Part shown: one piece after another, positions 32,801 through 57,213 of the stretch
Numbering within the stretch: the first letter of the stretch is position 1
Layout: each line of letters opens with the position of its first letter
NCBI GenBank assembly: GCA_945831585.1
Contig: CAMACY010000004.1
Coordinates: forward strand, 2,830-66,829
DNA length: 64,000 nt
Direction: 5' to 3'
From: an uncultured bacterium
Lineage (GTDB): Bacteria > Verrucomicrobiota > Verrucomicrobiia > Verrucomicrobiales > Akkermansiaceae
Notes under the pieces: model-generated
The model's input: only the letters and a program-made list of their open reading frames with translations
What the model was told of the DNA's origin: nothing
Databases searched by the model: none
Program-made: the position numbers and the translations under genes

Positions 32801-35800
32801 GCCCGTGCTCGCCACGCTGTCGGCTTCCGTGGTGGTGTCCGTGGTCGAGGCCAGCGCCAGCGAGCCCTCGTTCGTTACAGCGCCGAGGGACACCGTTCCG
32901 CCCTGAAGGCTCAGGCTCTTGCCTGCGACGATGTCGGTGGCGGCGGCATTCACGCTGTCATCCGTCAGCGTGGTGGAACCGTCAATGGTCAGCTTGGTCG
33001 TGGCGGTGATGTTGTTGTCGCCGTTGTCGGTGATACCGGCGCCCAGCACCAGCTCCTCGGCGCTCAGCGTACCGCCCAGATTGGTGTTACTCAACGCGAG
33101 GATGTCGGCGCTCAGCGTGCCGTTGATGCTGCTGCCCGTGCCGCTGATGACCGCATTGCCCGCAACCTCCAGCGTATCGTACTCGCCGATGGTCACCTTG
33201 CCCGTGCTCGCCACGCTGTCGGCTTCCGTGGTGGTGTCCGTGGTCGAGGCCAGCGCCAGCGTGCCGCTGTTCGTCACTGAGCCGAGGGAAGCGGAGCGGT
33301 TGTCGGCGAGGGTCAGGCTCTTGCCAGCGGCGATGCTTGTCTGCGTGAGGCTCAGATCCCCGCTCAGTGTCAGGGCATCCGCAGCGACCGCCAGTTGCGC
33401 GCCGGAGATGCGACCGCTGAGGGTGCCCGTGCCCGCAGTCGTCAGGGTGCCGATGATGGCTATGTTCTTGGCTTCATCGCCTGCCAGGGTCAGGGTGCTA
33501 TTGCCCTGCAGCTCCAGAGTGCCGGCACGGCCAAGGACATTGCTCTCCTCCGTCTTCAGGTTCACACTGTCCGCCAGCGTGATGTTCCCCGTGTGGGTGC
33601 CGACAGCCGCCAGCGTCAGGGTCTTATTGGTGCCCTCCACCCGCAGCGTGCCGTTGCCCGCGAGGGACTGAATCGTGATGTCTTTCTCCAGCACGATGGT
33701 GCCGCCGGCGTTGAGCGCCTGCACGGTCATGGCGCTGCCGTCGGCGATGTCCGTGCCGACATCGCTCTTGACCGCCAGGGTGCCGCCGCCCAGCGTCAGC
33801 GTGCCGACCAGCTTACCCTCCAGGTCGAGGCTCGCGCCCGCGCTGTTCAGTGCAATATCGCCCGTGGTGGTGCCGCGCAAATCCACGCCGCCGTTCAGCA
33901 CGCTCAGCTGAGTGAACGAGACCTCCCCGCCCAAATCCACGGCGGGGTCCGTTCCGCTGTCCGTGCGGATGGAACCGACCAGCACCCGATACCCCTCCAG
34001 GACGGCACTGTTGAGCACCAAGCGCGAATCCCCGTTGACGTTGATGAGCTCCGGATCCGAGGTCGCAGTGGCGAGCTTCAAATCCTTCATGAGCAGGTCG
34101 GAATTGCTCAGGTTGATATCCGTGGTCACCAGGACATCCTCCACACCCGCCTTGCCTGTCAGGGTCAGCTTGCTGCTCGAGAGGTTTACCTCGCCCAGCG
34201 AGCCGAGCGCGGTGGATGCCGTGGCGTTCGTGATGCTCAGCTCCGAGCCGTTCTCCATCGTCAGGCCGTGGCTGAGCTGCACCTCGCTGTACGTCCCGGT
34301 GGTCAGCTCCTGAAGCTTGATCTCAGCTTTACCCTCGTGGATGTAGAGCTCGTGGGCGGTAACCCCGCTCAGTCGGACGGTCTGACTACCCGAAATCTCC
34401 ATATCCTGCGTATCGGGGGAGACCAGCACGATGTTGCCGAGCAAGGCACCGGCGGAAGCCAGTGCGTTCGCGGAGATACGCACGCTGCCGTTCAGATTCA
34501 TCGTAGCGTCCTTCCCGATGCTCAACTTGTCCAGCACATCGTCCGTGATGTCCAGATCGCCCTCGGTGTTCAGCACGGAGGAGTCCTCCAGCTTGATTTG
34601 GTCGAAAGCCGCCAGCAGCGCATTGATGTCGTGGTCTTCTACCCTCAGCTCCGCCGTGTCGCCCAGCGTGAGGGAACCCACCCCATCCGTGGTAGTCAGC
34701 GTGGTGATGGTCACCTGCGTGGTGCCGTTCACTGTGAGCGAGGCATCGCCGAGCTTCAGCGCGCTCAGCGTGTTCAGCGGGGTATTCGCAAACCCCACCG
34801 AATTCAGCGTCAGGTCGTGACTCTTCGTATCGATCGTGGCGGCGGTGGTACGGCCGTTCAGGGTCGTATCCTGCTCCAGCTCGATGGTGTCGGTGTTGAT
34901 GGTCGCCTTCACCACGCCATCGCTCGTGTTGAGCACCACCTTGCCGGACCAGGCGTTCAGCGTCGCCCCGTCGACATCCGCACTACCCTTGATGGTCAGG
35001 ATCTTGCCCGCATCAACGCTCACCTCGCCCATCAGGCTGGTGCCCGTAGTGCCCTCGATGATCAAATTGCCATGCGCCTGAAGTGTGGCTCCGGTGTCCA
35101 CCGTCAGTATGCTCTTAACCGTGACCTCAGAGGGTTCGCCTGACTTCTGCCTCAACGCGCCCCGGATGGTCAGGGTATCGGTAGCATCATCGCTCATCCG
35201 GGTGAACTGAGCCTGGGCACCTGTGCCAATGACCAACGAATCTGCGGTTCCCGGAGTTGTTTCGAGAGTGCCCAACACATGTGTTCTCCCACCGCTAATT
35301 GTCAGACTACCCGGGGTGTCGCTAGCCCCCAGCAAGGTACCGAAGACCGTGATGGTGGAGGTCCCGCTCACCGTGCGATTACCGGTGACCACAAGCCCCC
35401 CGGCCGACAGCTCGACATCCGTCAATGTTGCCGGGGAACCGCTCTGCGCAATGCTCGGGTCATCTTTCAGAAAAATCTTGCCGTCCGAGGCGGTGGCGGA
35501 GAGCCTCGCTTTCGTTGCCGCACCGAACAGCGTGAGGTAGGACGCCTGGACGGTATTGCTTCCGGAGGCAGTGCCCTCAACGCTCCCCAGCGTGAGCATA
35601 GCGCCGGAGATACTCAGTCCCGCCGCATTGGTGAGAGTCAGCTTCTTGACCGCCGAGAGGGCACTCGCCTGCAGATTCGCTTGCAGCGTAAGCGTTCCCG
35701 ACCCGAAGTCCAGGACATTGACGGAGCAGGCGCCGCTGCTGCCAATCGTGAGGCTCCCCGATCCGGCAATCCGGGTTGCCCCGTTGAGCGTCTCGATTCC

Positions 35801-36418
35801 TTGATTGAGCGTCAGGTTGGCGTTTTCGCCGACGGTGAACATGTGGTCTCCCGATCCGGAGAAGGAGACTTTCTCCAGCGTCGTGCTTAGCTCCTGCGTG
35901 GGCGAAAACGTCACATTGGTACCGACGCTCACATCAAAAGGAGAACCGTCGCCGTCGACACTACCGGTCAGCGTGAAGCTCCCCCCGGCAACGAGATGAG
36001 AAGATCCGTGCACTCGCGTCACCGTGCCTGCAATCGTCAAATCGCCGTTGGTTTGGAACGTGGCGCCACCCCCAAATGTTTCATCACCCAGTTGAAGCGT
36101 ACCCTGCAAGGTAACGGCATCGACATATCCGCTCGCCTGCGCCAAGGTACTGTTAACGCCAAGGATAATCTTGCTGTCCGCATCCGTGCGGATGGTGGTG
36201 ATATAGGTATGCGCCCCCGTAACAGAAAGCACTTTGCCAGCCCCCGTCAGGTCGATGTTGAGTACATCCGCTTGCGCCTGCGGGACGAGTGCAAGCGCAG
36301 CAGCGCTGAGGGTGAGGGTGGCGATGGTGGTCGCCGCCGGGGTGGCGGTCAGGGGGCTGAGCAGCGCCAGCACCGAGAGCAAGGCCTTACGCAGGCCTCT
36401 GGGTAAATGCAGTTTCAT
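26834..36418 (-). CDS. Giant autotransporter (type Va), 3194 aa, repetitive beta-helical passenger
   Basis: MKLHLPRGLRKALL extended signal, T/G/L/S-rich passenger, autotransporter-associated repeats (LTKDGAGTLTL, ITKTGDAELTL), C-terminal beta-barrel ending in HIGVRHSF. Confidence 0.92.
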   Translation of the reverse strand: MKLHLPRGLRKALLSVLALLSPLTATPAATTIATLTLSAAALALVPQAQADVLNIDLTGAGKVLSVTGAHTYITTIRTDADSKIILGVNSTLAQASGYVDAVTLQGTLQLGDETFGGGATFQTNGDLTIAGTVTRVHGSSHLVAGGSFTLTGSVDGDGSPFDVSVGTNVTFSPTQELSTTLEKVSFSGSGDHMFTVGENANLTLNQGIETLNGATRIAGSGSLTIGSSGACSVNVLDFGSGTLTLQANLQASALSAVKKLTLTNAAGLSISGAMLTLGSVEGTASGSNTVQASYLTLFGAATKARLSATASDGKIFLKDDPSIAQSGSPATLTDVELSAGGLVVTGNRTVSGTSTITVFGTLLGASDTPGSLTISGGRTHVLGTLETTPGTADSLVIGTGAQAQFTRMSDDATDTLTIRGALRQKSGEPSEVTVKSILTVDTGATLQAHGNLIIEGTTGTSLMGEVSVDAGKILTIKGSADVDGATLNAWSGKVVLNTSDGVVKATINTDTIELEQDTTLNGRTTAATIDTKSHDLTLNSVGFANTPLNTLSALKLGDASLTVNGTTQVTITTLTTTDGVGSLTLGDTAELRVEDHDINALLAAFDQIKLEDSSVLNTEGDLDITDDVLDKLSIGKDATMNLNGSVRISANALASAGALLGNIVLVSPDTQDMEISGSQTVRLSGVTAHELYIHEGKAEIKLQELTTGTYSEVQLSHGLTMENGSELSITNATASTALGSLGEVNLSSSKLTLTGKAGVEDVLVTTDINLSNSDLLMKDLKLATATSDPELINVNGDSRLVLNSAVLEGYRVLVGSIRTDSGTDPAVDLGGEVSFTQLSVLNGGVDLRGTTTGDIALNSAGASLDLEGKLVGTLTLGGGTLAVKSDVGTDIADGSAMTVQALNAGGTIVLEKDITIQSLAGNGTLRVEGTNKTLTLAAVGTHTGNITLADSVNLKTEESNVLGRAGTLELQGNSTLTLAGDEAKNIAIIGTLTTAGTGTLSGRISGAQLAVAADALTLSGDLSLTQTSIAAGKSLTLADNRSASLGSVTNSGTLALASTTDTTTEADSVASTGKVTIGEYDTLEVAGNAVISGTGSSINGTLSADILALSNTNLGGTLSAEELVLGAGITDNGDNNITATTKLTIDGSTTLTDDSVNAAATDIVAGKSLSLQGGTVSLGAVTNEGSLALASTTDTTTEADSVASTGKVTIGEYDTLEVAGNAVISGAGSSISGTLSADSLELSNTNLGGTLSAEELVLGDGITDSGDNNIIATTKLTIDSYIELTGDTVNAAATDIAAGKSLGLTSNANMGKLGTTDVDGTLTLEGTGTGKSTLTADITLNGTGSASLTNIELMGSISTTNRADTNSTSLSLTNTDISGDLTVIGGTLQLSGANTVGGSLFISDTVTVNNNGTGSLTVTDVTEIDDYGHLIVENDLDSAISFNGNGAKATFIGTHTQEQKITLVSSGTIEVDGTLTISGAISSAYNTSLTLVGADDAAIVLSHSNTGLTADISSSVDTIVVQADHALGTGGVRLMKSQTLSNEGATEQVELGNNIDLRGKTLTLALSDVTGLAADAPELVLSGVLSTGSLLKTGTGMALLQNEYNDLRGVEVQDGGLALVGGSFGDLEASGGGQLAVARATLKAQSTITTGETASISLDQVTGQHLGNVSNEGTLELENQSELEVAGITNTGTLTLDATSSLSASGNVTSTGTLTVAGELTGDKDISISGTGNEISGKVTAEDDLTLANTTLLGAWLDADIIELGEGITDSAFAMRSNAFTANELKVTSEVTLTEDTILADQTTITGNLTLADSAQAELGAVTNSGTLALTSTNATTTTADSVENTGTLSIGAHDTLEVAGDVSSTGSTATVAVEGTLTAKNIDITGGDATHLNSISGTVKADEDEGTLSLANTTLTSDATLDGAGVVLESNVKTVEGATGVSLSGDLLEVTGEDNVLKNATVNFAESSIEADSSLLLTSNTDMGKLGTTGVEGGLTLEGTGTAQSTLTADITLNGTGSASLTNIELTGDITTTNTNAADAASGSTSLSLTNSTISGDLTVVGGTLTLGGNNSVGGAVIISDVVTIVNDAHQPAGSLSVTQGAVIKANGELRVDAHNSLDSVIIFDRYGLVEGANPLLTPTDAADPMVTFIGTHEQNKDLVFASNGTINVVGSLELNGHLVKKDLISQNNPAETVRLNGGTMKINSDNEAFDLNIASALNRIELGEDEALGAEGTLTLGNDQTLANNTQATTQSKAINLNSKTLTVETGENLELAGVVNNGSITKTGDAELTLSNESEDEKTLTKLTVDAGSVKLTGENYTVENTVLAAGTTLSSTGGNSFGDGTGTTGISGTNAKVVLAADELDNAKLVLSHDVAPTTGVTVTLSGTTGSLAAGSSLTNERAWVLGATLSGQLDMNGGVSLLANSHLRDLELTLAQDGGVGTQETELGNVTLQAGRLSLNGGNSATGKTLTLEGGGDDVRSISVLGDVAEDLSDATLAVNADGSITTQENASLKLGSITGAHELTKDGAGTLTLTADNAASFGGTIALLEGTLAAQASGAFGGSAATLVIASGMTRAGSTRLLITGTEGGAAVSYDSTLDVQADLTLKTLSDTTWTTAAQLLGAAGTTLSKQGASALILNSNVPNFATAISLNEGRLEVNGSIASAVTMSTGTTLNGSGTLGDVTGAADSRIYVGAAAESSDIATLTVGQYDAHGADLLLDVTNAGADKLVVTVGAADVSADTLKLHFAGDESAVAEQTRHTIVEAQGTGVVVSGDYGLRIEHNMDTRNAHTVNEGGDVILVLSKNHKGADKNGNQQSVSDALRDIERAGIATGELAQVLTALAHTTSEGQALAALDSLGGVNNTALMSSVLEGALDHTRNLRQMAGQNGATRIELKGSDECCRRYHTIPATELWFAPTAGYTRIGGAEGVPSFGRQGYGAMLGVDRSLTPELLLGLSCGYEYSKINITGAQKSTGDNYYLDLYGRVNKGRWAHSFSVGVGVHELMHKRNVGVAGLAPFAGGTKGDISGMSLNLSYEAAVNFRVSDRATLAPVFTIDSTAAWLDSYTETGMGNAGLSVNRQDAWSTVLGLGARYSYEFRALSRRTRKSSVLTAQVMLTLDAADQGSSVKAHFIGAPGYDFTQNGPSRDRVGGLLSVGLDLPVTDSWSGFGGVSYELRNDYRSVDGHIGVRHSF
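32520..33300 (-). repeat. Tandem 399-bp (133-aa) near-identical repeat inside the autotransporter passenger
   Basis: ccgcaacctccagcgtatcgtactcgccgatgg... at 32761 and 33160; a diverged third copy near 30840-30960; another block is repeated at about 30240-30500 and 32280-32520. Confidence 0.9.
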
Positions 36419-45457: not shown

Positions 45458-45597
45458 TCCCTTTCTATCCCCGGCACGGCGCCTGCTGCGGCGGGCGCTG
45501 CGCCGTTTTTCTGCCATCCGCGGCGTTCCGGCGCAAAAATCCTTGACAGCCGCCGCCGAAGCGGGCACAATGCTGCGCGTGCGGCGCGCCGCATCAA

Positions 45598-45685
45598 GGA
45601 GAGATGGCTGAGTTGGTCTAAGGCACTCGACTCGAAATCGAGCGTGGCAGGAATGTCACCAAGGGTTCGAATCCCTTTCTCTCCG
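45598..45685 (+). tRNA. tRNA-Ser(CGA), CCA not encoded
   Basis: Acceptor GGAGAGA/TCTCTCC, anticodon arm CTCGA-CT-CGA-AA-TCGAG, long variable arm, T arm AAGGG-TTCGAAT-CCCTT. Promoter TTGACA-17-CACAAT from 45543. Confidence 0.96.
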
Positions 45686-45690
45686 CTCTC

Positions 45691-45717
45691 AGGGCAATCG
45701 CATGTTGCGATTGCCCT
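45691..45717 (+). terminator. Hairpin after tRNA-Ser
   Basis: agggcaatcgca-tgt-tgcgattgccct (12-bp perfect stem). Confidence 0.65.
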
Positions 45718-45869
45718 TGCTGTTTCAAGACTTGACGACCATCATACCCGCCCCAGAAGTAAACGCTCATTTGCAACGTGATGGCAACGGAAATGACAAC
45801 CAAGCGCCCGAGGGCATGCTCTCCTTCGCCGCGTTCTGCGAGGAGAAGTGATTGTTTCCCACCAGACGC

Positions 45870-46289
45870 TCAAGGGCAAATGACCGTGACGTCGGCGATG
45901 GAGGCAATGTCCATGCAGGTGTCGTTGTGGAGGCGGACGGTGCGGGTGTGGGGGTCGAGGCAGCGGATGCTGCCGCAAGCTTCGGCGTAGCGACCGCCGT
46001 TTTTTCGGGGGTCGGGGATGAAGTAGCGAATGTTGAGGATGAGGGCGGGGTCGCGGGCGGCGCGTTGCAGCAGTTCACTGATCTGCCATTTGAGCGTTTC
46101 ATCCGGCTGAGGCGCTTCTTCGGTGAGGCGGGCGGCTTCAGCGATGGCCTCGTCGTGCCCGCTGAGAGCGGCAAAGGGGGAGAATTGGGCGGCGCGCTCG
46201 GCCGGGCTCATGCGCGGGCGGGTGGTGGCGTAGGGGTAGGGCTGCGCGATGATGTCCTCGTAGGCGCTTCTCTCGTTCGGGGTGTTCAT
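45870..46289 (-). CDS. YolD-like protein (accessory partner of a Y-family polymerase)
   Basis: RPRMSPAERAAQFSPFAALSGHDEAI motif; its start overlaps the polymerase stop. Confidence 0.8.
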   Translation of the reverse strand: MNTPNERSAYEDIIAQPYPYATTRPRMSPAERAAQFSPFAALSGHDEAIAEAARLTEEAPQPDETLKWQISELLQRAARDPALILNIRYFIPDPRKNGGRYAEACGSIRCLDPHTRTVRLHNDTCMDIASIADVTVICP

Positions 46290-47785
46290 GCTTGGTGACC
46301 TCCGATTTGGGTGTTGCGGTCGCGAGCGGTAGCGCCTTCTTCCAGGTTCATGCCGCGCAGGATAGCGTTGCTGCCGAATTGGCGGCGGATGTGCAGCAGG
46401 GCTTGCTGCATGCGGTGTTCGCGAGCCAGGCGCTCGCGTTCATCGTCCTCGCTCTCGGCGCAGCGTGGCTCGAAGAGCTCGAGCTGGTGCGGCTCGGTGC
46501 AATCTTGCAGCGGGGCGGTTTCGCTCACAACGCGAGCGGCGACCATGTTGAGCCGCCGCACCAGCAGAGAGGGGTCTATCAGCTCCTGCGCCAGCGCCTG
46601 CACGCTTTGACGCAGGAGGCGGGCGGAGGAAGTGAAGCGCCCGAGTTTGCGGCTGCCGTGCGCGTGGGCGGGAATGCGGCGCCCGTAGACATCGGTGCTG
46701 ACGGGGCCGCGATATTGGCGGCGGCGCTGCGGGTCGAGCAAATTCTCGATGTCGTAGCCGATGGTGATGGCGATTTGGTCGGTGACCAGTCCTTTTTCCA
46801 CCAGGTCAAGCGCGAGTTGGTCGGCCATTTCGCGCAGCACCAGCAGCGCTTTGTCGGCGCTGTAGGGCTCGTGCAGCACTTGCCCCGAACCCAGGCTGCG
46901 GTTGTCGGGGCGATAGGCCTTGATGTCCTGCACCGTGCAGGGTTCCCAGCCCCAGGCGTGGTCGATCAGCAGCTCGGCATTTTTGCCGAAGAGGCGGTAG
47001 AGGGAGTCTTCGTTGCGCAAGGAGCGGCGGGCGATGTCGCCCATGGTGTACAGGCCGTTTTGCTCCAAGGTGCGCGCGTAGCCCCGTCCGACGCGCCAGA
47101 AGTCGGTGAGGGGACGGTGCGCCCATAGCCGGCGGCGGTAGCCGGGCTCGTCCAACTCGGCGATGCGGGTGCCGTCGGCATCAGGAGCGGTGTGTTTGGC
47201 CTCGATGTCCATGGCGACTTTAGCCAGGTAGAGGTTGCTGCCGATGCCGGCGGTGGCGGTGATGCCGGTGTTGCGAAGGATGTCGAGGATGATGCGCTTG
47301 GCGAGTTCGCGAGGGCTGCAGCGGTAGCTGTCGAGGTAGGGGGCGACGTCGAGGAAGACCTCGTCAATGGAGTAGACGACAATGTGCTCGGGGGCGATGT
47401 AGCGGGTGTAGATCGTGTAGATGCGGGTGCTGTAGCGAATGTAGTGCGCCATGCGGGGCGGGGCAACCAGCACCTCCAGCGCGGCGCGCGGATCGCGCTG
47501 CAGCTCGTGTTGGGAGGAGGAGGTGCCGCTCAGCCCGGCGCGGGCGCGCTGTTGGCGCTCGCGGTTGATTTCGCGCTGCTTTTGGCGCACTTCAAAGAGC
47601 CGGGGTCGCCCGGGGAGCCCGCAGGCTTTGAGCGGCGGGGTAACGGCCAGACAGATGGTTTTGTCGGTGCGGCGCTCGTCGGCCACGACGAGGTGGGTGT
47701 CGAGAGGATCAAGCCCGCGCTCCACGCACTCGACAGAGGCGTAGAAGGACTTGAGGTCGATGGCGATATAGGCCGGCTTCGGCAT
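46286..47785 (-). CDS. Y-family (UmuC/UvrX-like) translesion DNA polymerase
   Basis: YIAIDLKSFYASVEC, YSIDEVFLD, TAGIGSNLYLAK, FWRVGRG, FGKNAELLIDHAWG, RNTQIGGH. Confidence 0.9.
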   Translation of the reverse strand: MPKPAYIAIDLKSFYASVECVERGLDPLDTHLVVADERRTDKTICLAVTPPLKACGLPGRPRLFEVRQKQREINRERQQRARAGLSGTSSSQHELQRDPRAALEVLVAPPRMAHYIRYSTRIYTIYTRYIAPEHIVVYSIDEVFLDVAPYLDSYRCSPRELAKRIILDILRNTGITATAGIGSNLYLAKVAMDIEAKHTAPDADGTRIAELDEPGYRRRLWAHRPLTDFWRVGRGYARTLEQNGLYTMGDIARRSLRNEDSLYRLFGKNAELLIDHAWGWEPCTVQDIKAYRPDNRSLGSGQVLHEPYSADKALLVLREMADQLALDLVEKGLVTDQIAITIGYDIENLLDPQRRRQYRGPVSTDVYGRRIPAHAHGSRKLGRFTSSARLLRQSVQALAQELIDPSLLVRRLNMVAARVVSETAPLQDCTEPHQLELFEPRCAESEDDERERLAREHRMQQALLHIRRQFGSNAILRGMNLEEGATARDRNTQIGGHQA

Positions 47786-47841
47786 GGTGACAGCCCCGCG
47801 GTGCGGGTGGGGGCAGCACACACCCGCGCTCCCGCACACGC

Positions 47842-48636
47842 TCACAAAATCTCCGGGGCGAGATAAAATTGCAGCAGGGTGATCTCGTCCTCACGGGTGA
47901 CGACGTAGCCGGGGTCGGCGGGCACCCACTGCAAGTGGTGAATGGTGGTACGCCGCGAACCGACGGGGTCTTCCGGGCGCGGGTCACGCAATTTGCCGCG
48001 CAGGGAAGGGGCAATCGCGGCGACGAGCTCGGCGGTGGTCAGGGGCGGCACGGCGGGGATGATGGAGGGGATACCCAACGGAATGCATTTTTCGACATCC
48101 AGCAGGATGCGCTCGGGCAGGTAAAGCTGGTGGTATTCCAGCGGGGCGAAGGGAAGCTCGCCGCGCTGTTGCTCGGGGTGCGTCAGGGCATGGAGCAGCG
48201 GATTAAACTCGGGGGTGGCGCGGGCAATGGAGGGGACATGGACGTTGAGCACGCGCCCGTACTGGTAGTTGACGGCTTCATAGAGCTTGATGCGATTGTT
48301 GGTGTAGGTATCGTCGCTCTGCTTGAGGGTGGGGGTGTTTTCATCGGCCTCGGGGGCGAGCATGTCCGCCGTGGTGACGAAGACGGTCAGCTCGGGGCGG
48401 ATATCACCCAGTCGGTGGATGAGGTAATCGGTGGCGCGGGTGTCGCCCTCGACATCGGCGCGCACGGCGGCGGGACCGTTGGCAATCGCCGGGTCGAGGA
48501 ACACCATCATGCGGAAGCTGCGCCCGAAAGCGAGCTTGAAATTTTCCTTGTCGATGAGGTAATCGAAGTAGCGATGCTTGGTCCAGTAGTTGCCGAAGAC
48601 GGTGCCGGCGCCGAGGAATGCGGTATCGTGGCTCAC
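47842..48636 (-). CDS. Degenerate NAD(P)-dependent epimerase/SDR-like protein
   Basis: Rossmann-like layout, but the Gly-rich motif reads FLGAGTVFG and the catalytic motif reads YTNNR. GTG start lies 7 nt after TTGTCA-17-TAGAAT. Confidence 0.5.
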   Translation of the reverse strand: MSHDTAFLGAGTVFGNYWTKHRYFDYLIDKENFKLAFGRSFRMMVFLDPAIANGPAAVRADVEGDTRATDYLIHRLGDIRPELTVFVTTADMLAPEADENTPTLKQSDDTYTNNRIKLYEAVNYQYGRVLNVHVPSIARATPEFNPLLHALTHPEQQRGELPFAPLEYHQLYLPERILLDVEKCIPLGIPSIIPAVPPLTTAELVAAIAPSLRGKLRDPRPEDPVGSRRTTIHHLQWVPADPGYVVTREDEITLLQFYLAPEIL

Positions 48637-48740
48637 GTTGTGCATTCTAGCGCACGGCACGGCGCCTGACAAGCGGTAAACGCGCGCCGCCGCGCAAAAA
48701 GGCAGCGGCGGCGCAACGGGGCTCCACTGCCCGTCGCGGC

Positions 48741-50348
48741 TTACATCTTGGCGCGGCGCGGGCGCAGGCTGTGCGGCGGCAGGGGGGCGATCAGGCCATG
48801 CGTCAACGCCTCGGCAAACATGCGGGCGGCGTCCGCGCTGTGCGAGGCGGCATCGTGCAGCGGGGTGTCGCGCAGGGCACCGCCGCTGCCGGCGGGGGCG
48901 CAGCGGTACATCTCCAGGCAGCTGAGCCCGCCGGGCTCCTTCTCACCGCGCAGGTTGATGCGCGGCAGCAGGGTGCGCCGGTGGAACCAGCTGCGCTCCA
49001 GCAGCCCGCGCAGAGCGTTGATGCCACGCCACACATCGGGGGTACGCGGCACCACGCGCACGGCGCAGATGCCCTCCTGCGCCAGACTCTCCACGTAGGA
49101 TTGCCCGTGCGGGTCGCGGTGGGCCGCGTCGTGCGGCAGGAGGTGGGCGGCGATGCGCCCGTAACGGCTCTCCCAACTGCGGATGATGCCGGCATAGTGT
49201 TCCAGGGGGAGCTGGTTGGAGGCGTAGTGGTCGAGCCAGTAAATTTGCCCGCCGTAGGGCTGCACCAGCCAGATAGCGGTGTGGTCGCTCATGCCGAGAT
49301 CCCAGGCGGTGTAGAGCGGCGCATCACTCCGGCACGCAAAATCGGCACCCACGCGTCCCTGCTCGCGCAGCAGGGCGATTTGGCTGCCGTAGATAGCGCC
49401 ATCGTTCCCGGTAGAGAAGGCCTCGTCGGGGGTGGTGGGGTATTCCTGGCGCATAGCGGCGCCCATGGTACGCTCCATGCGCGCGTACCAGAGCTTTTGC
49501 GCGTGGCTCAGGCGAATTCCCTGCTCCGTCTCCAGCTTTTCAAAGTAGGCTCCCAGCGCGTCGCTCCACCCGGAGCTGCCGGGCAGCGCGTAGTCGGGGT
49601 TGTCGGCCCAGCTAAAGAAGAAGAAGCGGAAGTCCAGAGGCGAGAGCTCGGCCTTGGCATTGTTTTCCATGGCCTGCACGGTCATCTCGTAGTTGACTCC
49701 GTAGCGCCCGCCCTCGTGGGTGCTTTCAAGGATGATGAGCCCATCCGCCGGGACGGTGTTGATGGCGCCGGTGCGGATTTCGCGGGCGCGCCACGGGGCG
49801 TGCACAGAGGTGTGCGCCAGCTCCGAGACATGCAGGAGTTGCAGGGTGCCGCCGCGCAGGTTGGTGCCCAGGCGGATGTCGCTGCCGTTGGAAAAGCCCA
49901 AGCGCGTGCGGGCATCGGTCACGGGGCGCCACTCCTGCTTGCGCCGGCAGCCGCTGCGCTGCTTGATGAGCCCGCCGAGGTAGGCGAGCGCCTGCTGCGC
50001 CGCATCGCTGCCGGGCGGGGCGTAATCGAGATGCTCCCAGGCGAAGCGAACCTTGTCGAGTTTCATCTCGGCATCGGGCAGGGTTTTGTCGATGATGCCG
50101 GCGTGGTAGTTAGGCGTAAACAGGCAGCGGTCGAGCATGAGCAGCGCCACATAGGTCGAGATACCCAGTTGGCGCGCCTTGAGCACAGCATTGCGGCTCC
50201 AGAGCCCGCGATGCAGGCGCAGCTGTGCCGCGTTGGGCGCAAAACGCTGCATCTGCCCGCTTTTCGTCTCGATCCAGTAGAGGTGCTGCAAGCGCCACAA
50301 CGGATTACCGAGCTGGCTGAAGTCGGCGAAAGCAGACGGCTTACTCAT
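48741..50348 (-). CDS. terL: Phage terminase large subunit (535 aa), motifs intact
   Basis: Walker A LKARQLGIST, Walker B LHVSE, coupling motif ILESTHEG, RNase H-like nuclease AWDLGMSDHTAIW, LPHDA, HDAASHSADA. The start overlaps the upstream stop (ATGAGTAA). Confidence 0.88.
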   Translation of the reverse strand: MSKPSAFADFSQLGNPLWRLQHLYWIETKSGQMQRFAPNAAQLRLHRGLWSRNAVLKARQLGISTYVALLMLDRCLFTPNYHAGIIDKTLPDAEMKLDKVRFAWEHLDYAPPGSDAAQQALAYLGGLIKQRSGCRRKQEWRPVTDARTRLGFSNGSDIRLGTNLRGGTLQLLHVSELAHTSVHAPWRAREIRTGAINTVPADGLIILESTHEGGRYGVNYEMTVQAMENNAKAELSPLDFRFFFFSWADNPDYALPGSSGWSDALGAYFEKLETEQGIRLSHAQKLWYARMERTMGAAMRQEYPTTPDEAFSTGNDGAIYGSQIALLREQGRVGADFACRSDAPLYTAWDLGMSDHTAIWLVQPYGGQIYWLDHYASNQLPLEHYAGIIRSWESRYGRIAAHLLPHDAAHRDPHGQSYVESLAQEGICAVRVVPRTPDVWRGINALRGLLERSWFHRRTLLPRINLRGEKEPGGLSCLEMYRCAPAGSGGALRDTPLHDAASHSADAARMFAEALTHGLIAPLPPHSLRPRRAKM

Positions 50349-53300
50349 CGTCCTCCGAATTCCACTCCTTTCCGAGGTAATTCCGCCACAAGCGCTTGAG
50401 CAACAACTGCTCGGGGAGCATATTTTCCTCTCCCGGTTCAGGCTGCGGCGACTCCGGCTGCGACTGCTCCGGCTTCTGGGGCTCCGGCACCCCACCCGAG
50501 CGGAATTTCTTGCGAGGTGCCTTTTCGGGCTGCGGTTGAGTCAGGGGAGTCACGTCGCGCAGGTAGCCGTGGTTCAAACGATGACTGCCGTAGGAGGCGG
50601 TGGACGACCATTGCCACAACGTGTCCTCCTTTTCCGTACGGCGAGCGGTATGAAAGAGCTCGCGCACCGCCTGTTCCTTCTCGGGATTCCGGCGCAGATA
50701 ATCGTTCAGCGCCAGCAGCTCACTCTTAGCCTCAGCATCGCCGGCATATTCGTGCCGAGCCAAGGCATAGAGGAAGAGCGAAGCCAGCGCCTCGGGCTCC
50801 GAGTACTCGTGGGGTGCCTTCCCTGCCATCACACGCCCGAAGCGGCAGTCCTCCGCCAGAGCCAGGAGCAACTCAGCGTTGGGAATCAGCTCCGAGCGAG
50901 AATGGTTAAGGCTCTCGGCACTCTCCGTTCGTTGCATCAACGCCTTCCATGCCTCCTCCACCATGGTCTTGCCGTAGAAGTTCAACATATGCCCCGTGAA
51001 CTGGCGATCGGGATTCAGGAATCGATCCAACGTCTGGTACAAGAAGCGCCCCTGCGAGCCATTGGGCAGCGCGCGCCCGCCCTGCAGGGGAGCTCCCACG
51101 AAGGTATGCACCACATAGGGACTGCGCAAATCGCCATAGAGACTGCTGCGCGAGCCGGGCATCAGGCGCACATGCGTCAGGGGATTCTCCTCGGACTCGT
51201 AGATGCAGATACGGCGTAGCGCCTCCTCGGGCAAGGGGGCTCGCGCCGAAAAACGGTAATCGCCGAACTGCATACCGGGTTCCCCCTCCTCGGAAAGCTG
51301 TGTGAACAAGTTCTGTAGCGTCTGGAAGGGGCGACGAATCGTCCACGCGGCATCCATGCCGGGCAGCAGACGCCCGGTATCCTGCGAATAGAGCTCGAAG
51401 TTCCACCACACCCCGCGCTCATCGGCATAGGGCAGCGACATCACCGCACGGCGCAGACGCGACAAATCGTGCAACGTTCCCTGCTGCTCGCTCAACTCGG
51501 GCGGCAAAGCCTCCGCAGGTTCCAGGTCGAAATCGCGTTGCAGCAGCCCCGGACGGCTGTAATCCGCACCGGTCCGCGTCACCTCCTCCGGGCGCATGAC
51601 CGGGCGCAAATCCAAAGGACGAAGCTTGAGCTGCAGCAATTGCCGCCCATCCTCGGGGTTCACATCGTAGCGCCGCAACTCCGGGAACTCCTGCAACGCC
51701 TTCTCCAGGCGTTGCAGAGCCGGCGGCGCTTCAGGCTTATCCGGCGCGGCAATCACATCCTCCGCTGCGCCCTCATGCTCGCAGAGCCAGTTAAAACGCC
51801 CGGCCAAAGCCTCCCGCTGAGACTCCGTCAGCTGCGACCAGCCTTGCGCAGGCGCGCGCAGCACATTCCACAGCCCCGGCTCGCGGTTGCGGAACTCGTG
51901 GTCACCGGCCATGGCATAACTCCAGCCCTGCTCCAGACGGCGCGACTCGCTCGGCACCAGCGCGTCGACAAAGGTCGCGAAGAGAGGGTCAGCCGTCAGC
52001 GTCTCCCCCTCGTTCTCCGCTCGCTTCCACTGCTCGGCAAAGGGCAGGAACTCCCGCATCTCCTCCACTGTATGCCGCAACGTTCGCCGCAACCCCTGCG
52101 TCGCATCGTGGCGCCCCATGCGACCACCGGACGCTTGAAGAAAGGAGCCGCGCCCTTCCATCGGGCGGGCAAAGGCCGACAGCCCGAACCACTCGCGCAC
52201 AGACTCCGGCAAGGGCAGCTCCTGCAAATGATTGAGCAGGTAGCCCATCGAGCAGCGGCTCAGATGCTCGGCCAATTGGCGATCGCGCACTGCCGAAAAG
52301 CGGAAAAAGCGCTGCGGCCACCACTCGTTGACGGCATCGAGATAGTCCGACTCCGTGCGGTAATCCTCGCGCACGGGAGCCTTGCGTTTGTGCCAAGCCC
52401 CGTTGCGCATGATAAAGTTCGCCTTCTTCTGTGTCACAACACCCTGCCGCAGCAGAAAGTCAATGGCCTCCCGGGGGGTCACCCTCCCGGTCTGAATAGC
52501 ATCGAGCCAATGCGCCGTCAGTCGCCCCTTGAAGTAGGCAAAAGGATTACTCACGGAGCGCTCCTCCATCCGCAGGTGGTCATAGACATCGGGACTGCTC
52601 TCAATCAGCTGTTGCTCCGAACGCTTTTTGAGCCTTAAGTTCACGCGCAGGGGGCCGATACCCACCCCGGGCTCCGTCAGCGACACATTCTCGTGCCACA
52701 ACTGTTGCAAATCGTTGGTCGCCATCGCCGTCAAGCGGTCGAAATAGGAATACTGGCGCTCCTGCCCCAACGAGAACGCATTGGCGTCGAAGCCTTCCGG
52801 ACCGCGCGCGGCATTATAATCACACATCAACGCATGGTCTAGATTCAGGAAGCGCAGGCGCATGCCCGCAGCCAAATCGTTCACCGCCTGCTCGCGCGTA
52901 CCATGCCAGCGGGTGTAGCGGCCGTCGGGTGTCCGCACGCGCCAATAGCTCTGCCCATCATCGCCGAGTCGCTGCTCGGGTTCCACCCCGCACAGGTAGT
53001 GATAGCGCTGCATCATCTCCTCGTTCTGGCGGGCATACTCCGCACGATCCGTCGCATCGACCTCGGGGAGCTTGGGCATCCACGAATCCCCGGGAAGCCT
53101 GTTGCCCAACTCTCGGTGCAGCAGGTGTGCCATCGACTCCTGCGGCGACATCCCGCGCGCAATACCCGTCTGGAAATCGGGATGATACAGCAACAGCGAG
53201 CAGAGCGTATCCGCCACGGCTCGTGAATTGCGCACCAGCTCAATGGCATCATAGTACTCTTGCGGGCGATTGTTGTGCAGCGGGTCGCGGCGCTCCATCG

Positions 53301-55779
53301 CCAGCGGAAAAATCTTCGACAAGCTCCTGGGTGTCACGCGGTACTGCCAAGCGTGCACCCCCATCGAGCGGAAGTTATCGAGATGGTAGCGCGTCACAAA
53401 ATCGCCGATGACGGAGGTCATGCCCTCCACCGGCGTGCCCAAAACGCGCTCCAGCACCGCCTCGGCCAGCTTGCCGATGTAGCGGCGGCGCAGCGCCTCG
53501 CCCTCGCGCAGCGTAGCGTTCACATCTTTGCCGCGGTACAACATCGTTTCCACCGATGTCGTGTTGAGCAAAAAGCGGTACGACAAGCTGTCCGCCAGAC
53601 GAATCACCTCGCCAATGGCGCGGCGGCGCTCGGCCGCCGTCTCGGGCGTGAAATCACCAAGCACCCGCAATTTGGGATCCAGCAAATCCTCTGTCCGCAC
53701 CCTGCCCTGCGGCAAATCCTTCGGGAAAGCCTTTTGGTGCCAGGCATCAGCCAGTTGCAAGTAGGGCAGCGTCTCCTTGGTCACGGGTTGCCCCTCCGCA
53801 AAACGCTGCGTCAACGACTCCACCACCTCGGGCTTGCTGATATCCGCCGGCGTAAAAGGCTCGGGCTTTTGGCTTGTCTCCGCCGGGAGCTGCAAGAAAT
53901 CACGCACCGCCTCTTCCTTCTCAAAAACGCGGCACTCGGGCGTCTGCAACAACTTGAGCGCGCGCAGCGCCTCCGCCAAAAAGCCCGCGCCGCCCCAGCG
54001 CTTGCTGCTGTGAATCGCCTCGTAGAGCATGCGGTCGCGGCGGTTGATGTCGGGCTCCGCGAGGATGCGCTGCTGCTCGGCCTCGCCCACCCCCCACTCA
54101 TCCAAAGCCTCGCCCCGCGCCCCCAAAATCGCCTGCGGATGGCGGAAATGGCGCAGCGCCACCCGCCCCGAACCGATGAGCACAAAGGGCAGCAGGCGTG
54201 CCGCCTCGCGCATATTCTGTTCCACGTCAACCATGGTCTTCCCATAGCTCTGCCAGTCAATATTCGAGGCCGTATCACTCAGCTGCGCGGCCAGCTCCTG
54301 CAAGCCCAAATCGGCCGTCTGTCCCGCCTTGGAAGCCATGAGCAGCTTCACATTCTCCGCCGTCAGCGCACCCGCAGATTTGAGCGCCGCCAGCGAATAG
54401 CCCTTGGCACCGTGGGCCCGGGCAAATTCCCCCAGCGAACGGTTGAGCATCTGCCCACCCACGCGACTCATGCCGCAGAAAATCCCCGCCTGCACCGCCG
54501 CCCCCAACACCCCGGCCGCCGTCTGCAAGCGGCGATCCCCCTCCGGGGCGCGTTCGCGCGCCGCGGCCACGGCCTCACCCATGCCCGAGAGACTCAGCAA
54601 CCCGAAGCCCGCCCCACCGCAGAAAGCCAGCGCCGCGCCGGGCGTTGCCTCGGCCGCATCCACCATCATCTGCTCGGCCAAGGAAGCATCCGGCGCCAAA
54701 CGCACGGGATATGCCTCACCCTGCGCACGACGTCGCAGCTCCTCAAACACCTGCAAACGGGCATCCGCGCCCTCTGCCGCGCGGCTCAACGAGGGCGCAT
54801 TCAACGAGCGCCCCGCCTGATCCAGCGTGGCCGCAGCCGTATGCCCCACCCCCTGCAAAAGCCCCCAGTTCAGGTTGGTCGATCCGCGCTGCGCCGCAGC
54901 CCACATGGTCGGCAGCAGCGCCGAACTCCCCCGCCCGCGCCGCCCCTCGGGCAAGCGCGTCATCGCCACGCGGTAGAGAAGAGCACGCTGCTGCGGATCC
55001 GTCTCCGCCAGCGTATCCACCACGTCCATCAGCTCGGGAACGCGCGAGTAGAAGTGGAGCATATCCGGCAACTTGCCCCCCTCCACCCCCTCCACAGCCG
55101 CCATCGCCTGCGCCACCCGATCGGCCATCGGCAGCAGCCGCTTGCGCTCGCGAGCCCCCTCGGCATAGCCCAGCGCCGCCACGCGCGACTCCGGCGTCTG
55201 CGCCTCCGGCTCCGCCTCTGCCCCATCCAGCGCCCGTTCATAAGCCCGGGTATACAACGCGCGCGCCTGCCGCCGCCGAGGCTCATCCTGAGCCACCTGC
55301 GACAGCGAGGCAAAGAGCTCCGGCTCACTGTCCCCGCTGCCCAAGCGCTGCGCCAAACGCTGCCGCAACACCGGCCACTCCGCCGCCACCCGCGCACGCG
55401 GGCGCCCCGAATAATCAGCCGCCCACGAACGATTCACCGTCGAAAGCAGCCGATACTCACGCTCCTCACCCGACAGTGTAGCATCCGCCGCACCGGCGCG
55501 CTGCTGCACCTCTGCCGGGATACTCGCCGCCTCACCCGTCAACACGCGCTGCCAATAGGCACGCAACGGCGTATCGAGCGAAATCTCGGCAGCCCCCGCC
55601 AAGTTGCCCGCCTGCCGCGACGACGCGGCCTCCTCTTCGGGCTCGGGGGCTACCGCCTGCAACGCCTCCCCGCCTGCCCCGGCGGCAGGCAAGGCTTCCA
55701 CCTGCTGCGACAACTCGGGCTGCACACTCGCTTCCGGCGCATCCTGCGGCACCGCCTCAACAATGGGTTTTGCTATCAT
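50341..55779 (-). CDS. 1812-aa hypothetical protein, possible phage internal virion/DNA-ejection-type protein
   Basis: Long uninterrupted ORF coupled to terL. The N-terminal third is helical and Ala/Gly-rich with hydrophobic GAALAFCGGAGFG...GVLGAAVQAG segments. Function is inferred only. Confidence 0.6.
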   Translation of the reverse strand: MIAKPIVEAVPQDAPEASVQPELSQQVEALPAAGAGGEALQAVAPEPEEEAASSRQAGNLAGAAEISLDTPLRAYWQRVLTGEAASIPAEVQQRAGAADATLSGEEREYRLLSTVNRSWAADYSGRPRARVAAEWPVLRQRLAQRLGSGDSEPELFASLSQVAQDEPRRRQARALYTRAYERALDGAEAEPEAQTPESRVAALGYAEGARERKRLLPMADRVAQAMAAVEGVEGGKLPDMLHFYSRVPELMDVVDTLAETDPQQRALLYRVAMTRLPEGRRGRGSSALLPTMWAAAQRGSTNLNWGLLQGVGHTAAATLDQAGRSLNAPSLSRAAEGADARLQVFEELRRRAQGEAYPVRLAPDASLAEQMMVDAAEATPGAALAFCGGAGFGLLSLSGMGEAVAAARERAPEGDRRLQTAAGVLGAAVQAGIFCGMSRVGGQMLNRSLGEFARAHGAKGYSLAALKSAGALTAENVKLLMASKAGQTADLGLQELAAQLSDTASNIDWQSYGKTMVDVEQNMREAARLLPFVLIGSGRVALRHFRHPQAILGARGEALDEWGVGEAEQQRILAEPDINRRDRMLYEAIHSSKRWGGAGFLAEALRALKLLQTPECRVFEKEEAVRDFLQLPAETSQKPEPFTPADISKPEVVESLTQRFAEGQPVTKETLPYLQLADAWHQKAFPKDLPQGRVRTEDLLDPKLRVLGDFTPETAAERRRAIGEVIRLADSLSYRFLLNTTSVETMLYRGKDVNATLREGEALRRRYIGKLAEAVLERVLGTPVEGMTSVIGDFVTRYHLDNFRSMGVHAWQYRVTPRSLSKIFPLAMERRDPLHNNRPQEYYDAIELVRNSRAVADTLCSLLLYHPDFQTGIARGMSPQESMAHLLHRELGNRLPGDSWMPKLPEVDATDRAEYARQNEEMMQRYHYLCGVEPEQRLGDDGQSYWRVRTPDGRYTRWHGTREQAVNDLAAGMRLRFLNLDHALMCDYNAARGPEGFDANAFSLGQERQYSYFDRLTAMATNDLQQLWHENVSLTEPGVGIGPLRVNLRLKKRSEQQLIESSPDVYDHLRMEERSVSNPFAYFKGRLTAHWLDAIQTGRVTPREAIDFLLRQGVVTQKKANFIMRNGAWHKRKAPVREDYRTESDYLDAVNEWWPQRFFRFSAVRDRQLAEHLSRCSMGYLLNHLQELPLPESVREWFGLSAFARPMEGRGSFLQASGGRMGRHDATQGLRRTLRHTVEEMREFLPFAEQWKRAENEGETLTADPLFATFVDALVPSESRRLEQGWSYAMAGDHEFRNREPGLWNVLRAPAQGWSQLTESQREALAGRFNWLCEHEGAAEDVIAAPDKPEAPPALQRLEKALQEFPELRRYDVNPEDGRQLLQLKLRPLDLRPVMRPEEVTRTGADYSRPGLLQRDFDLEPAEALPPELSEQQGTLHDLSRLRRAVMSLPYADERGVWWNFELYSQDTGRLLPGMDAAWTIRRPFQTLQNLFTQLSEEGEPGMQFGDYRFSARAPLPEEALRRICIYESEENPLTHVRLMPGSRSSLYGDLRSPYVVHTFVGAPLQGGRALPNGSQGRFLYQTLDRFLNPDRQFTGHMLNFYGKTMVEEAWKALMQRTESAESLNHSRSELIPNAELLLALAEDCRFGRVMAGKAPHEYSEPEALASLFLYALARHEYAGDAEAKSELLALNDYLRRNPEKEQAVRELFHTARRTEKEDTLWQWSSTASYGSHRLNHGYLRDVTPLTQPQPEKAPRKKFRSGGVPEPQKPEQSQPESPQPEPGEENMLPEQLLLKRLWRNYLGKEWNSEDDE

Positions 55780-55791
55780 AAAAACGATCTC

Positions 55792-57060
55792 TCAAGCCTG
55801 CTGCACCTCGTAGCACACCCAGCGCGGCGCGACTGAGGCGCAATCACGCAACCATGTATCCAGCATCTCGCCGCTCTGCGTCACCAAGCGCTGCTGCGCC
55901 TCCTGCTGCAACCGCGCCAAGCGGCGCTGCGGCACCGCATCCTCCGGGCATCCCAAACACCCCGAAAGGTACACATTCCACAAAGCCTCCCCCGCGCGAC
56001 GGCGAAGCTCCGGCGGCAAGCTTGCGCTGCGCTCCAAATAGCCGAGCAGCGCACGACGCTGCGGCGCAGGCGCCCCCAACGCCGCAATCTCCACGCGCAG
56101 AGCATCTGCCGCAGCCTCTCCTTCCTCACGCGTATCCACGCGATGCTGCCACGCCGCGTATTCCTGAGCCGACCACGTTTTTTTCTCCGCAAGCGAAGCA
56201 TCTACGATACCCGCCTCGGCAGCCCGCTGCAACTCCTGCGGAGCCGGCTCACCCCCCTCGGCCAAACGCTGCGCCCACTCCTGCCCCAAGGCGCGCTGCA
56301 ACCCACGGCGAGCCTGCGACACCGCTAACTCCACCTGCTCGAGCTGCGCGCTCCCGGCGGGGCGATCAGCATCCTCGCGCCGCCAGTCTCGCAGCGCCTC
56401 GGCGGGCGACTCCTGCAACGCCCGCGTCCAGCGCGCCGCGCAGCAGCGGCTCACCACCTCGCAGCGGCGCTCCTCCATCTGCTCCTCGGGCACAAACACC
56501 CCACGCCCCAACTCCAGCTGCTGCAAAGCCATTTGCGGCTCCCCGCGAGACACCTCGCTCTCCAACACCTCCTGCCAGCGATGCCGCGAATGGGCGATAC
56601 TCTCTCGTTCATACCGACTCTTCGCCAAAAGAGAGGCTCTCTGCACCATCGCCCCCGCTGATTCCCGCCACTCCGGCGGCAAAGCCGCCGCCGTCTCCGC
56701 CACCACGGGAGCCCCCGCCCGCCGCCACACAGACGACCAATCCCCGGGCTCATCTGCGCCCAACACATTACCCTCAGCTTCCATCTCTTCCGTCAAGCGA
56801 GCCTGCATCTGCGCAACCATGCCCACCGTATTCACCTTCCGCTTCGCCTCATCCAGAACCTCATCGGCGCTCTCCCTCGCCGTCGACTCCTGATGCCTCG
56901 TCACAGCCGTCGCCAGCTCGGCGCCCCCGCTCACCGCCTCCACCCAACCCTGCCCCCATTGAGCCGCTGCACGACCCATCCCCTCAATCCCGGATGTCGG
57001 CACCCGGAGCCCCGCCCCCGGATACGCCACCAACGCCCACTCTTTCATGCGAATCGCCAT
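55792..57060 (-). CDS. 422-aa helical hypothetical protein, possible phage ejection/internal virion protein
   Basis: Start MAIRMKEW; Ala/Glu/Arg/Gln-rich coiled-coil-like sequence; 12 bp upstream of the 1812-aa gene. Confidence 0.55.
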   Translation of the reverse strand: MAIRMKEWALVAYPGAGLRVPTSGIEGMGRAAAQWGQGWVEAVSGGAELATAVTRHQESTARESADEVLDEAKRKVNTVGMVAQMQARLTEEMEAEGNVLGADEPGDWSSVWRRAGAPVVAETAAALPPEWRESAGAMVQRASLLAKSRYERESIAHSRHRWQEVLESEVSRGEPQMALQQLELGRGVFVPEEQMEERRCEVVSRCCAARWTRALQESPAEALRDWRREDADRPAGSAQLEQVELAVSQARRGLQRALGQEWAQRLAEGGEPAPQELQRAAEAGIVDASLAEKKTWSAQEYAAWQHRVDTREEGEAAADALRVEIAALGAPAPQRRALLGYLERSASLPPELRRRAGEALWNVYLSGCLGCPEDAVPQRRLARLQQEAQQRLVTQSGEMLDTWLRDCASVAPRWVCYEVQQA

Positions 57061-57151
57061 AGCACCAGCATCGCAAAGCGCCACCCAACGCACAAGGAAG
57101 CGCCACCCCGCCGCAGACGGTGCCCGCCCCCGGAACACACCCCCTCAACGC

Positions 57152-57183
57152 AAAAAAACTCTTCCCCCGGTCAGGGGAAGAGT
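57152..57183 (-). terminator. Rho-independent terminator of galM, insulating the phage-like operon
   Basis: actcttcccc-tgacc-gggggaagagt-ttttttt on the minus strand. Confidence 0.8.
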
Positions 57184-57213
57184 CTTGTTGACACGCCCTC
57201 CGGCGCGTGCCCC

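Follow-up and report, generated by a model that had tools for sequence, protein, structure and literature searches.

A scattered set of T7-like podovirus genes in Akkermansia, with a terminase operon as its putative packaging module and a gene transfer agent as a possible product

The window analyzed here, a stretch of 64,000 nucleotides (nt) from an uncultured bacterium of the Akkermansiaceae (contig CAMACY010000004.1 of assembly GCA_945831585.1), carries an operon of three phage-like genes: gene A, gene B, and the gene of a large terminase subunit (TerL). The operon lies among housekeeping genes, namely galM, kdtA, a Y-family polymerase gene with its 276-aa partner, and fabD, and in the reading favored below it is one module of a phage-derived gene set that belongs to the host. 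A preliminary description made from the DNA letters had reported three tightly coupled genes on the minus strand, and the open reading frames (ORFs) are as it described them, sizes included: A and B are separated by a 12-nt gap, B and TerL overlap by 8 nt, and none of the frames is broken by an internal stop (Table 1). The ATG assigned to A is backed by the N-terminus MAIRMKEW, which is conserved in 14 orthologues. The sequence also confirms that the block is bounded by the galM terminator on one side and a hairpin on the other, and that there is no integrase and no exact direct repeat flanking it; some att-like repeats considered around the block were rejected as imperfect, GC-rich chance matches. 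The block does not have the makeup of an integrated prophage, that is, a contiguous genome with an integrase, att repeats, and genes for replication or lysogeny. Its base composition is host-like, with a G+C content at third codon positions of 0.77–0.86 in the operon and 0.78–0.90 in the flanking genes.

Table 1. Coordinates of the operon, its boundaries, and related features in other contigs and genomes (positions without a contig name are those of the window; G000 is the genome that contains the window, and C90 and C42 are two of its contigs).
Feature	Position	Strand	Remarks
TerL, large terminase (ATPase and RNase H-like nuclease by sequence), 535 aa	48741..50348	-	Pfam, PHROG, motifs
Gene B, 1812 aa	50341..55779	-	mostly helical over modelled residues 60-1130; polyvalent-type N-terminal domain
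Gene A, candidate internal virion protein, 422 aa	55792..57060	-	all-helical model; viral Foldseek matches
Promoter-like element TTGTGC, 17 nt, GATGCT	57067..57095	-	stops 6 nt short of the ATG of A
galM intrinsic terminator, upstream operon boundary	57155..57186	-	14-bp stem, then T-run
GC-rich hairpin past the TerL stop, downstream boundary	about 48690..48735	-	
ORF of ~65 aa before the portal gene	G000 contig C90:1085-1288; L035:11524-11733	+; -	
Capsid upstream element	L077-L085, L090-L092, C42:958-1100		conserved
Prophage-like cluster of G064	G064:C1:2436001-2476000 (L072+L073; 2.44-2.47 Mb)		with 3385-aa polyvalent protein

TerL was said in the preliminary description to keep its ATPase and nuclease motifs, and this is borne out by Pfam and PHROG matches and by an alignment with the TerL of phage PS-1. 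The protein matches the Pfam family Terminase_6C (PF17289) with E=1.9e-6, better than the curated cut-off, as well as the PHROG families phrog_2 (E=6.5e-19) and phrog_2472. It is 33–36% identical to the TerLs of cultured phages, the value being 36% for those of phages Mcat8 and PS-1. The ATPase motifs are LKARQLGIST (Walker-A-like), LQLLHVSE (Walker-B/Glu), and ESTHEG; they are conserved in 41 core orthologues, and their counterparts in the PS-1 protein are LKARQLGFTT, LHVSE, and ESTAEG. By core TerLs we mean those with at least 61% identity, all found in a genus that is called Akkermansia in public records. The acidic motifs of the nuclease, WDLGMSDHTA, PHDAAHRD, and HDAASHSADAAR, align with the PS-1 TerL as well, and every motif position is kept when the Akkermansia prophage TerLs are added to the alignment. 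The two hallmarks of a Terminase_6-type TerL, an N-terminal ASCE ATPase with its coupling motif and a C-terminal RNase H-like nuclease, are thus both present, and by its sequence the product of the gene is a genuine large terminase. In public records its orthologues go under the labels “hypothetical protein” or “phage terminase large subunit family protein”.

The proposal that the capsid and portal genes of such a system are encoded elsewhere in the genome has held up: portal, capsid, scaffold, adaptor, and nozzle genes were all found in the same genome, among housekeeping genes. Contig C90 encodes a portal protein of the T7 type (PF12236, E=1e-122); the four other genomes that were tested all have it too, and the 14 control genomes all lack it. 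In the C90 locus a gp11-like adaptor gene of the phrog_394 type diverges from a run consisting of a small ORF, the portal gene, and a scaffold-like gene (phrog_3742). The small ORF encodes a conserved product of about 65 aa (MGFAAKTPS...KRKRGLLSTILS...) without a family match; it is joined to the start of the portal gene through TGATG, and it may be another particle component. The tail nozzle protein is encoded on contig C25 (gp12-like, 829 aa, E=3e-62 to the Pelagibacter phage Greip), where its gene is flanked by a GT8 glycosyltransferase gene and by nrdR/UDG. The major capsid protein is encoded on contig C42 (302 aa, E=1.7e-32, 33% identical to that of Greip) by a gene that diverges from the mraW-ftsI-murE cluster. 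TerL, capsid, and portal each have a single match in this genome, and there is therefore no related prophage in it. The genes are spread over at least four loci, those of A-B-TerL, C90, C42, and C25, each surrounded by housekeeping genes, and in complete genomes the dispersed loci are hundreds of kb apart. As is the case for a gene transfer agent (GTA), genes so dispersed would not be transferable by the particle itself. Of roughly 11 components essential for a T7-type virion and its packaging, only the fibre, the small terminase, and the equivalent of gp14 were not recognized; the internal virion proteins, fibres, and small terminases of BcepC6B and Greip gave no match when used as queries against the genome.

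The gene set is a long-standing possession of the genus. The A-B-TerL cassette is present in 11 of 13 and in 72 of 81 sampled genomes (about 85–90%). B is detectable in 11 of the 13 genomes and in none of 108 genomes from 19 other genera, and the core TerL is likewise limited to the genus, with none in the other genera of the family that were sampled. The order A-B-TerL is the same in all 15 loci examined, the lengths of the three products being about 410–450, 1600–2200, and 533–547 aa, and these loci lie in at least five different housekeeping contexts, with no phage genes nearby. The galM-A-B-TerL arrangement holds in each of the three nearest species that were examined, while the flanks differ in distant species; the system is confined to the genus and does not extend to the Akkermansiaceae as a family. 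In about 70 species the frames are open, and a single in-frame stop occurs among the TerLs listed. The ratio of nonsynonymous to synonymous substitution rates (dN/dS), which had been suggested as a check, indicates purifying selection: in comparison with the nearest species (dS about 0.3) it is 0.087 for TerL, 0.185 for B, and 0.27 for A, with 0.108 for galM.

TerL stands out by its conservation. Its identity across the genus is 61–95%, and in the comparison with genome G157 it reaches 84%, against 70% for galM, 36% for A, and 38% for B. In the most distant clade TerL is 61–67%, the capsid protein 62–65%, and the portal 63–66% identical, against 52–57% for MurE, where the MurE figures here and below are distances to this genome and not taken from a tree; TerL is better conserved than this essential enzyme. 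The 41 core TerL sequences are monophyletic, with the two sampled Akkermansia prophage TerLs outside (support 0.93). The gene set is inherited vertically within the genus and is under purifying selection. Phage-derived genes that are vertical, selected, and free of integrase and replication genes are what one finds for GTAs, and the synteny, the phylogeny, the dN/dS values, and the partner genes all favor the earlier suggestion of domestication under host selection.

The dispersed loci also come and go together. Among 81 genomes, the core TerL and the core capsid are both present in 65 and both absent in 11, with TerL alone in four and capsid alone in one (Fisher p=1.3e-9). The core portal is absent from the same 11 genomes, and these have no nozzle match, either, at an E-value threshold that is too strict for the distant clade. 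Ten of the 11 empty genomes are 62–71% identical to this genome in MurE and one is 54%, while the carriers reach 52–57%; since some carriers are more diverged than the empty genomes, the latter are not an outgroup. All of the dispersed loci have been lost together at least once, and probably several times, and this joint loss speaks for their mutual dependence. The identities of TerL and capsid correlate (Spearman 0.80, n=61), and the divergence of the core TerL tracks that of both MurE and capsid.

Genes A and B are harder to place. Neither matches anything in Pfam, PHROGs, PADLOC, or NCBIfam, and for B there was no match by tblastn against 50,697 phage records or in a scan of IMG/VR with a pattern of the B family. 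They had been described as internal virion or ejection proteins, a claim which remote homology and fold support only in part and for which PHROG, Pfam, and PDB offer no match. The AF2 model of A is all-helical (pLDDT 81, pTM 0.66). In a Foldseek search of BFVD, all of its probability-1.0 matches are Caudovirales proteins of 500–900 aa, and those that have a name are either internal virion proteins or bear lysozyme, NlpC/P60, or SLT domains, a feature of podovirus ejection proteins. The likeness of the predicted fold to podovirus internal virion proteins is supportive of such a role, not decisive. The AF2 model of B, which covers residues 60–1130, is almost wholly helical (pLDDT 69.5), and in BFVD it has just two significant matches, both of them ART-PolyVal-like proteins of Caudovirales. 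When 1.84 billion representatives were searched exhaustively with a profile, only 202 relatives of B came up. About 83 of them are full-length B-like clusters at 50% identity, the full-length relatives being confined to Akkermansia-type contigs; about 35 are giant proteins of 2000–3740 aa that have only the N-terminal ~500 residues (~100–600) in common with B.

One of these giants, of 3385 aa, is encoded by a prophage of A. muciniphila in genome G064 and is matched by the hidden Markov model of the B family with E=1.4e-30. Judged from its sequence it is a polyvalent protein, because it bears ART-PolyVal, PBECR5, and LPD3 domains. Polyvalent proteins have been predicted to be packaged in the phage head and injected with the phage DNA (Iyer, Burroughs, Anand, de Souza, and Aravind 2017, PMC5512222). 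B has about 500 N-terminal residues in common with them; unlike them, it has no recognizable effector domain. Where a polyvalent protein combines at least two disparate effector domains in one chain, no Pfam domain is found in B and only the N-terminal domain is common, and B may keep just the packaging and ejection scaffold of these proteins. A second case was found on contig C49 of genome G002, where a B-like domain is encoded 8 kb from a phage-type capsid gene. A and B further resemble gp14, gp15, and gp16 of T7 in being large, helical, fast-evolving, and encoded near virion or packaging genes. They differ from these core proteins in having no PHROG or Pfam match, no significant PDB fold match, and no lytic transglycosylase domain. 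In sum, the domain of B occurs in the post-nozzle protein of one Akkermansia prophage, and the matches of A have low TM-scores with none in PHROG, Pfam, or PDB. Both genes are hypervariable between species, with dS also above that of the flanking genes, a pattern that would fit a replacement of alleles through recombination between conserved flanks.

The prophage just mentioned deserves a closer look. G064 is a complete genome of the same genus, and its core TerL is identical to a protein recorded as from Akkermansia muciniphila. Its prophage-like cluster is contiguous, in the order TerL, portal, scaffold, capsid, adaptor, nozzle, a 567-aa protein, and the giant, and adjoins a replication initiator gene and two DNA methylase genes. 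Compared with the core proteins, those of the related prophages of the genus are 42–52% identical for TerL, about 37% for portal, and 26–36% or even 58–63% for capsid. The capsid protein of the G064 prophage is 63% identical to that of this genome, as close as the solitary core capsid of G064 itself, which is encoded at 1.73 Mb. This suggests either that a relative of the progenitor phage lives on in the prophage or that capsid genes have been exchanged between phage and host. More broadly, TerL, portal, scaffold, capsid, adaptor, and nozzle are homologous to those of the BPP-1/BcepC6B-like podoviruses, of the Pelagibacter HTVC010P-like podoviruses, and of the Akkermansia prophages. In podoviruses and prophages, however, the genes are contiguous and accompanied by replication, methylase, lysis, and fibre genes, whereas the core set of Akkermansia is scattered. 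The core cassette also has A and B upstream of TerL, where the prophage has its giant encoded after the nozzle gene instead.

To our knowledge, the GTAs described so far are long-tailed or siphovirus-like. A close point of comparison is RcGTA, the GTA of Rhodobacter capsulatus and its relatives, in which head, portal, and terminase genes likewise belong to the host, pass down vertically, and are maintained by purifying selection; GTAs of this multi-locus type likewise have no integrase or replication genes and are spread over several loci that make up more than one particle can carry. The Akkermansia parts differ from described GTAs in being T7-like and podoviral (PF12236 portal, gp11-like adaptor, gp12-like nozzle), in coming from the Verrucomicrobiota, in being dispersed down to single genes, and in having no recognized small terminase, fibre, lysis gene, or regulator. 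A comparison case from the gut is the GTA-like packaging in Faecalibacterium (PMC12946183).

We put the probability at roughly 0.6 that the A-B-TerL operon is the packaging and internal-protein module of a dispersed, vertically inherited, host-owned gene set derived from a T7-like podovirus. Akkermansia would, on this gene content, probably build a virus-like particle of its own, and that particle may possibly be a GTA. The capsid protein and the scaffold would form a procapsid on the portal, into which A and B would be loaded as core or ejection proteins. TerL would then pump DNA into the head and cut it. Because a small terminase is not recognizable, packaging would probably be of the headful kind with little sequence specificity, and the cargo would probably be host DNA. 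After packaging, the adaptor and the nozzle would close the portal, and the product would be a phage-like particle unable to carry its own scattered genes, a GTA-like agent. The assembly of the particle, its DNA cargo, its release, and its delivery are all steps that we infer from the genes. GTA-like packaging appears the most likely activity, because the intact packaging ATPase-nuclease is kept more tightly than MurE. The conserved parts (TerL, capsid, and portal) are the internal machinery, and the fast-evolving ones (nozzle, A, and B) are those that would meet the recipient cell. A bolder proposal, that Akkermansia, A. muciniphila included, makes a podovirus-derived GTA from scattered genes and with it delivers A, B, and host DNA to recipient cells, is put forward tentatively, at somewhat worse than even odds; such an agent would be the first GTA with a short tail and the first from the Verrucomicrobiota. 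In the full-text library searched, no paper connects Akkermansia with a GTA or with the genes described here.

Several points weigh against a host-owned particle of this kind. Phage queries, whose sensitivity is limited, did not reveal a tail fibre or receptor-binding protein, a small terminase, a holin or endolysin, or a regulator, and a complete particle would need parts of this kind to be released and to adsorb. The genome is a metagenome-assembled one in 94 contigs, and the contig with the portal gene is just 4.3 kb long. Profiles of A and B found nothing meaningful among PDB sequences, the Foldseek search of PDB with B gave only generic helical repeats, none of them significant, and the Foldseek TM-scores of both proteins are low (0.1–0.4). 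Akkermansia is not mentioned in a human faecal study of bacterial DNA packaged in capsids. Finally, the upstream regions of A and of the capsid gene have no promoter motif in common (no 8-mer occurs in at least half of both sets). This last result also favors the view that A-B-TerL works alone, as a cellular DNA translocase or nuclease complex or as a device for protein delivery, with no relation to capsid, portal, and nozzle, and so do the boundaries and the promoter-like element that the operon has of its own. TerL enzymes, however, work docked on portals. The presence and absence of the operon match those of capsid and portal nearly perfectly in the 81 genomes, and the relatives of B are located in virion gene clusters; we regard a stand-alone role as improbable.

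The main rival to a particle of the host's own is interference with, or dependence on, related podoviruses. The gene set would then hijack or poison such phages during their assembly in an anti-phage role, or borrow their fibres and lysis functions as a satellite does, and would not be an autonomous GTA. Related prophages circulate in the genus, and the missing fibres, lysis genes, and small terminase are exactly what a helper phage could supply. Moreover, A and B are 32–38% and the nozzle about 50% identical where TerL is 78–84% identical, and proteins at interfaces or in conflicts evolve as fast as this. We nevertheless hold this explanation to be unlikely, if less so than the stand-alone one: the genome studied here has the full dispersed set without a related prophage, no integrase or replication gene is present, PADLOC defence models do not match A, B, or TerL, and the active-looking packaging ATPase-nuclease is conserved beyond the needs of a decoy. 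As for a decaying prophage remnant without function, its frames intact by chance or through recent acquisition, the lack of any mobility or replication gene in the operon and the varying flanks in distant species are what one might expect of it. The dN/dS values of 0.09–0.27, the frames open in so many species, the conservation of TerL above that of MurE, the monophyly of the core clade, and the host-like composition make it very improbable indeed.

A host-owned particle in Akkermansia would be of interest for more than one reason. A. muciniphila is among the most studied of the beneficial gut bacteria and is in development as a probiotic. If the particle is real, it would be an unrecognized and conserved route for the exchange of genes, and perhaps of proteins, in the mucus layer, with a bearing on how strains evolve, on how the safety of probiotic strains is assessed, and on the reading of faecal virome data. 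The particle would also add short-tailed phages and a new phylum to the known origins of domesticated phage particles, and it would offer a natural example of single structural genes that are functional though fully dispersed.

The upstream regions of the operon and of the capsid gene each have conserved elements. In divergent species the sequence TTGAC(G)-N16-17-(C/G)ATGCT-N6-7-ATG recurs upstream of A, which points to a promoter whose transcript is leaderless or has a very short leader; no match to a canonical sigma-70 promoter was found at the promoter-like element of A. Upstream of the solitary capsid gene, the pattern across species is GGAyAATC-N9-12-CCGnTTGCCG followed by an A/C-rich leader of 25–30 nt.

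A further observation concerns the positions of the loci relative to each other. In one species the cassette is followed directly by nrdR and an ORF of ~184 aa (L005:15303-18346), and in this genome nrdR and an ORF of ~180 aa lie directly before the nozzle gene (G000 C25:19154-22754). The arrangement hints that the TerL and nozzle loci were once neighbors.

Around the operon, the gene downstream of TerL had been called epimerase-like, which is not correct. It is the ORF of 276 aa, without a family match, whose ATGA overlap couples it to a 519-aa homologue of Y-family polymerases (IMS/IMS_C) of the ImuB/DinB-like kind (window positions 46286-48672, minus strand). The pair resembles imuA-imuB, with no dnaE2 nearby. 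In comparison with the nearest species the 276-aa ORF is highly conserved (dN/dS 0.05) and the polymerase less so (0.26). The two genes were considered as members of the module and rejected, being adjacent to it only in the closest relative and having a promoter-like site of their own (48644-48672). The sole tRNA gene in the window, for Ser (45598-45686), is 3 kb from the block. Also rejected was an ORF of 3194 aa (26834-36418, minus strand) as a relative of the giant prophage protein: it is an autotransporter- or adhesin-like protein with a signal peptide at its N-terminus and repeats rich in Gly, Thr, and Ser, and it has no similarity to the giant or to B. The GC skew is positive at 45500-49500 despite the minus-strand genes there, and negative at 50–62 kb, where the genes are on the minus strand, too.

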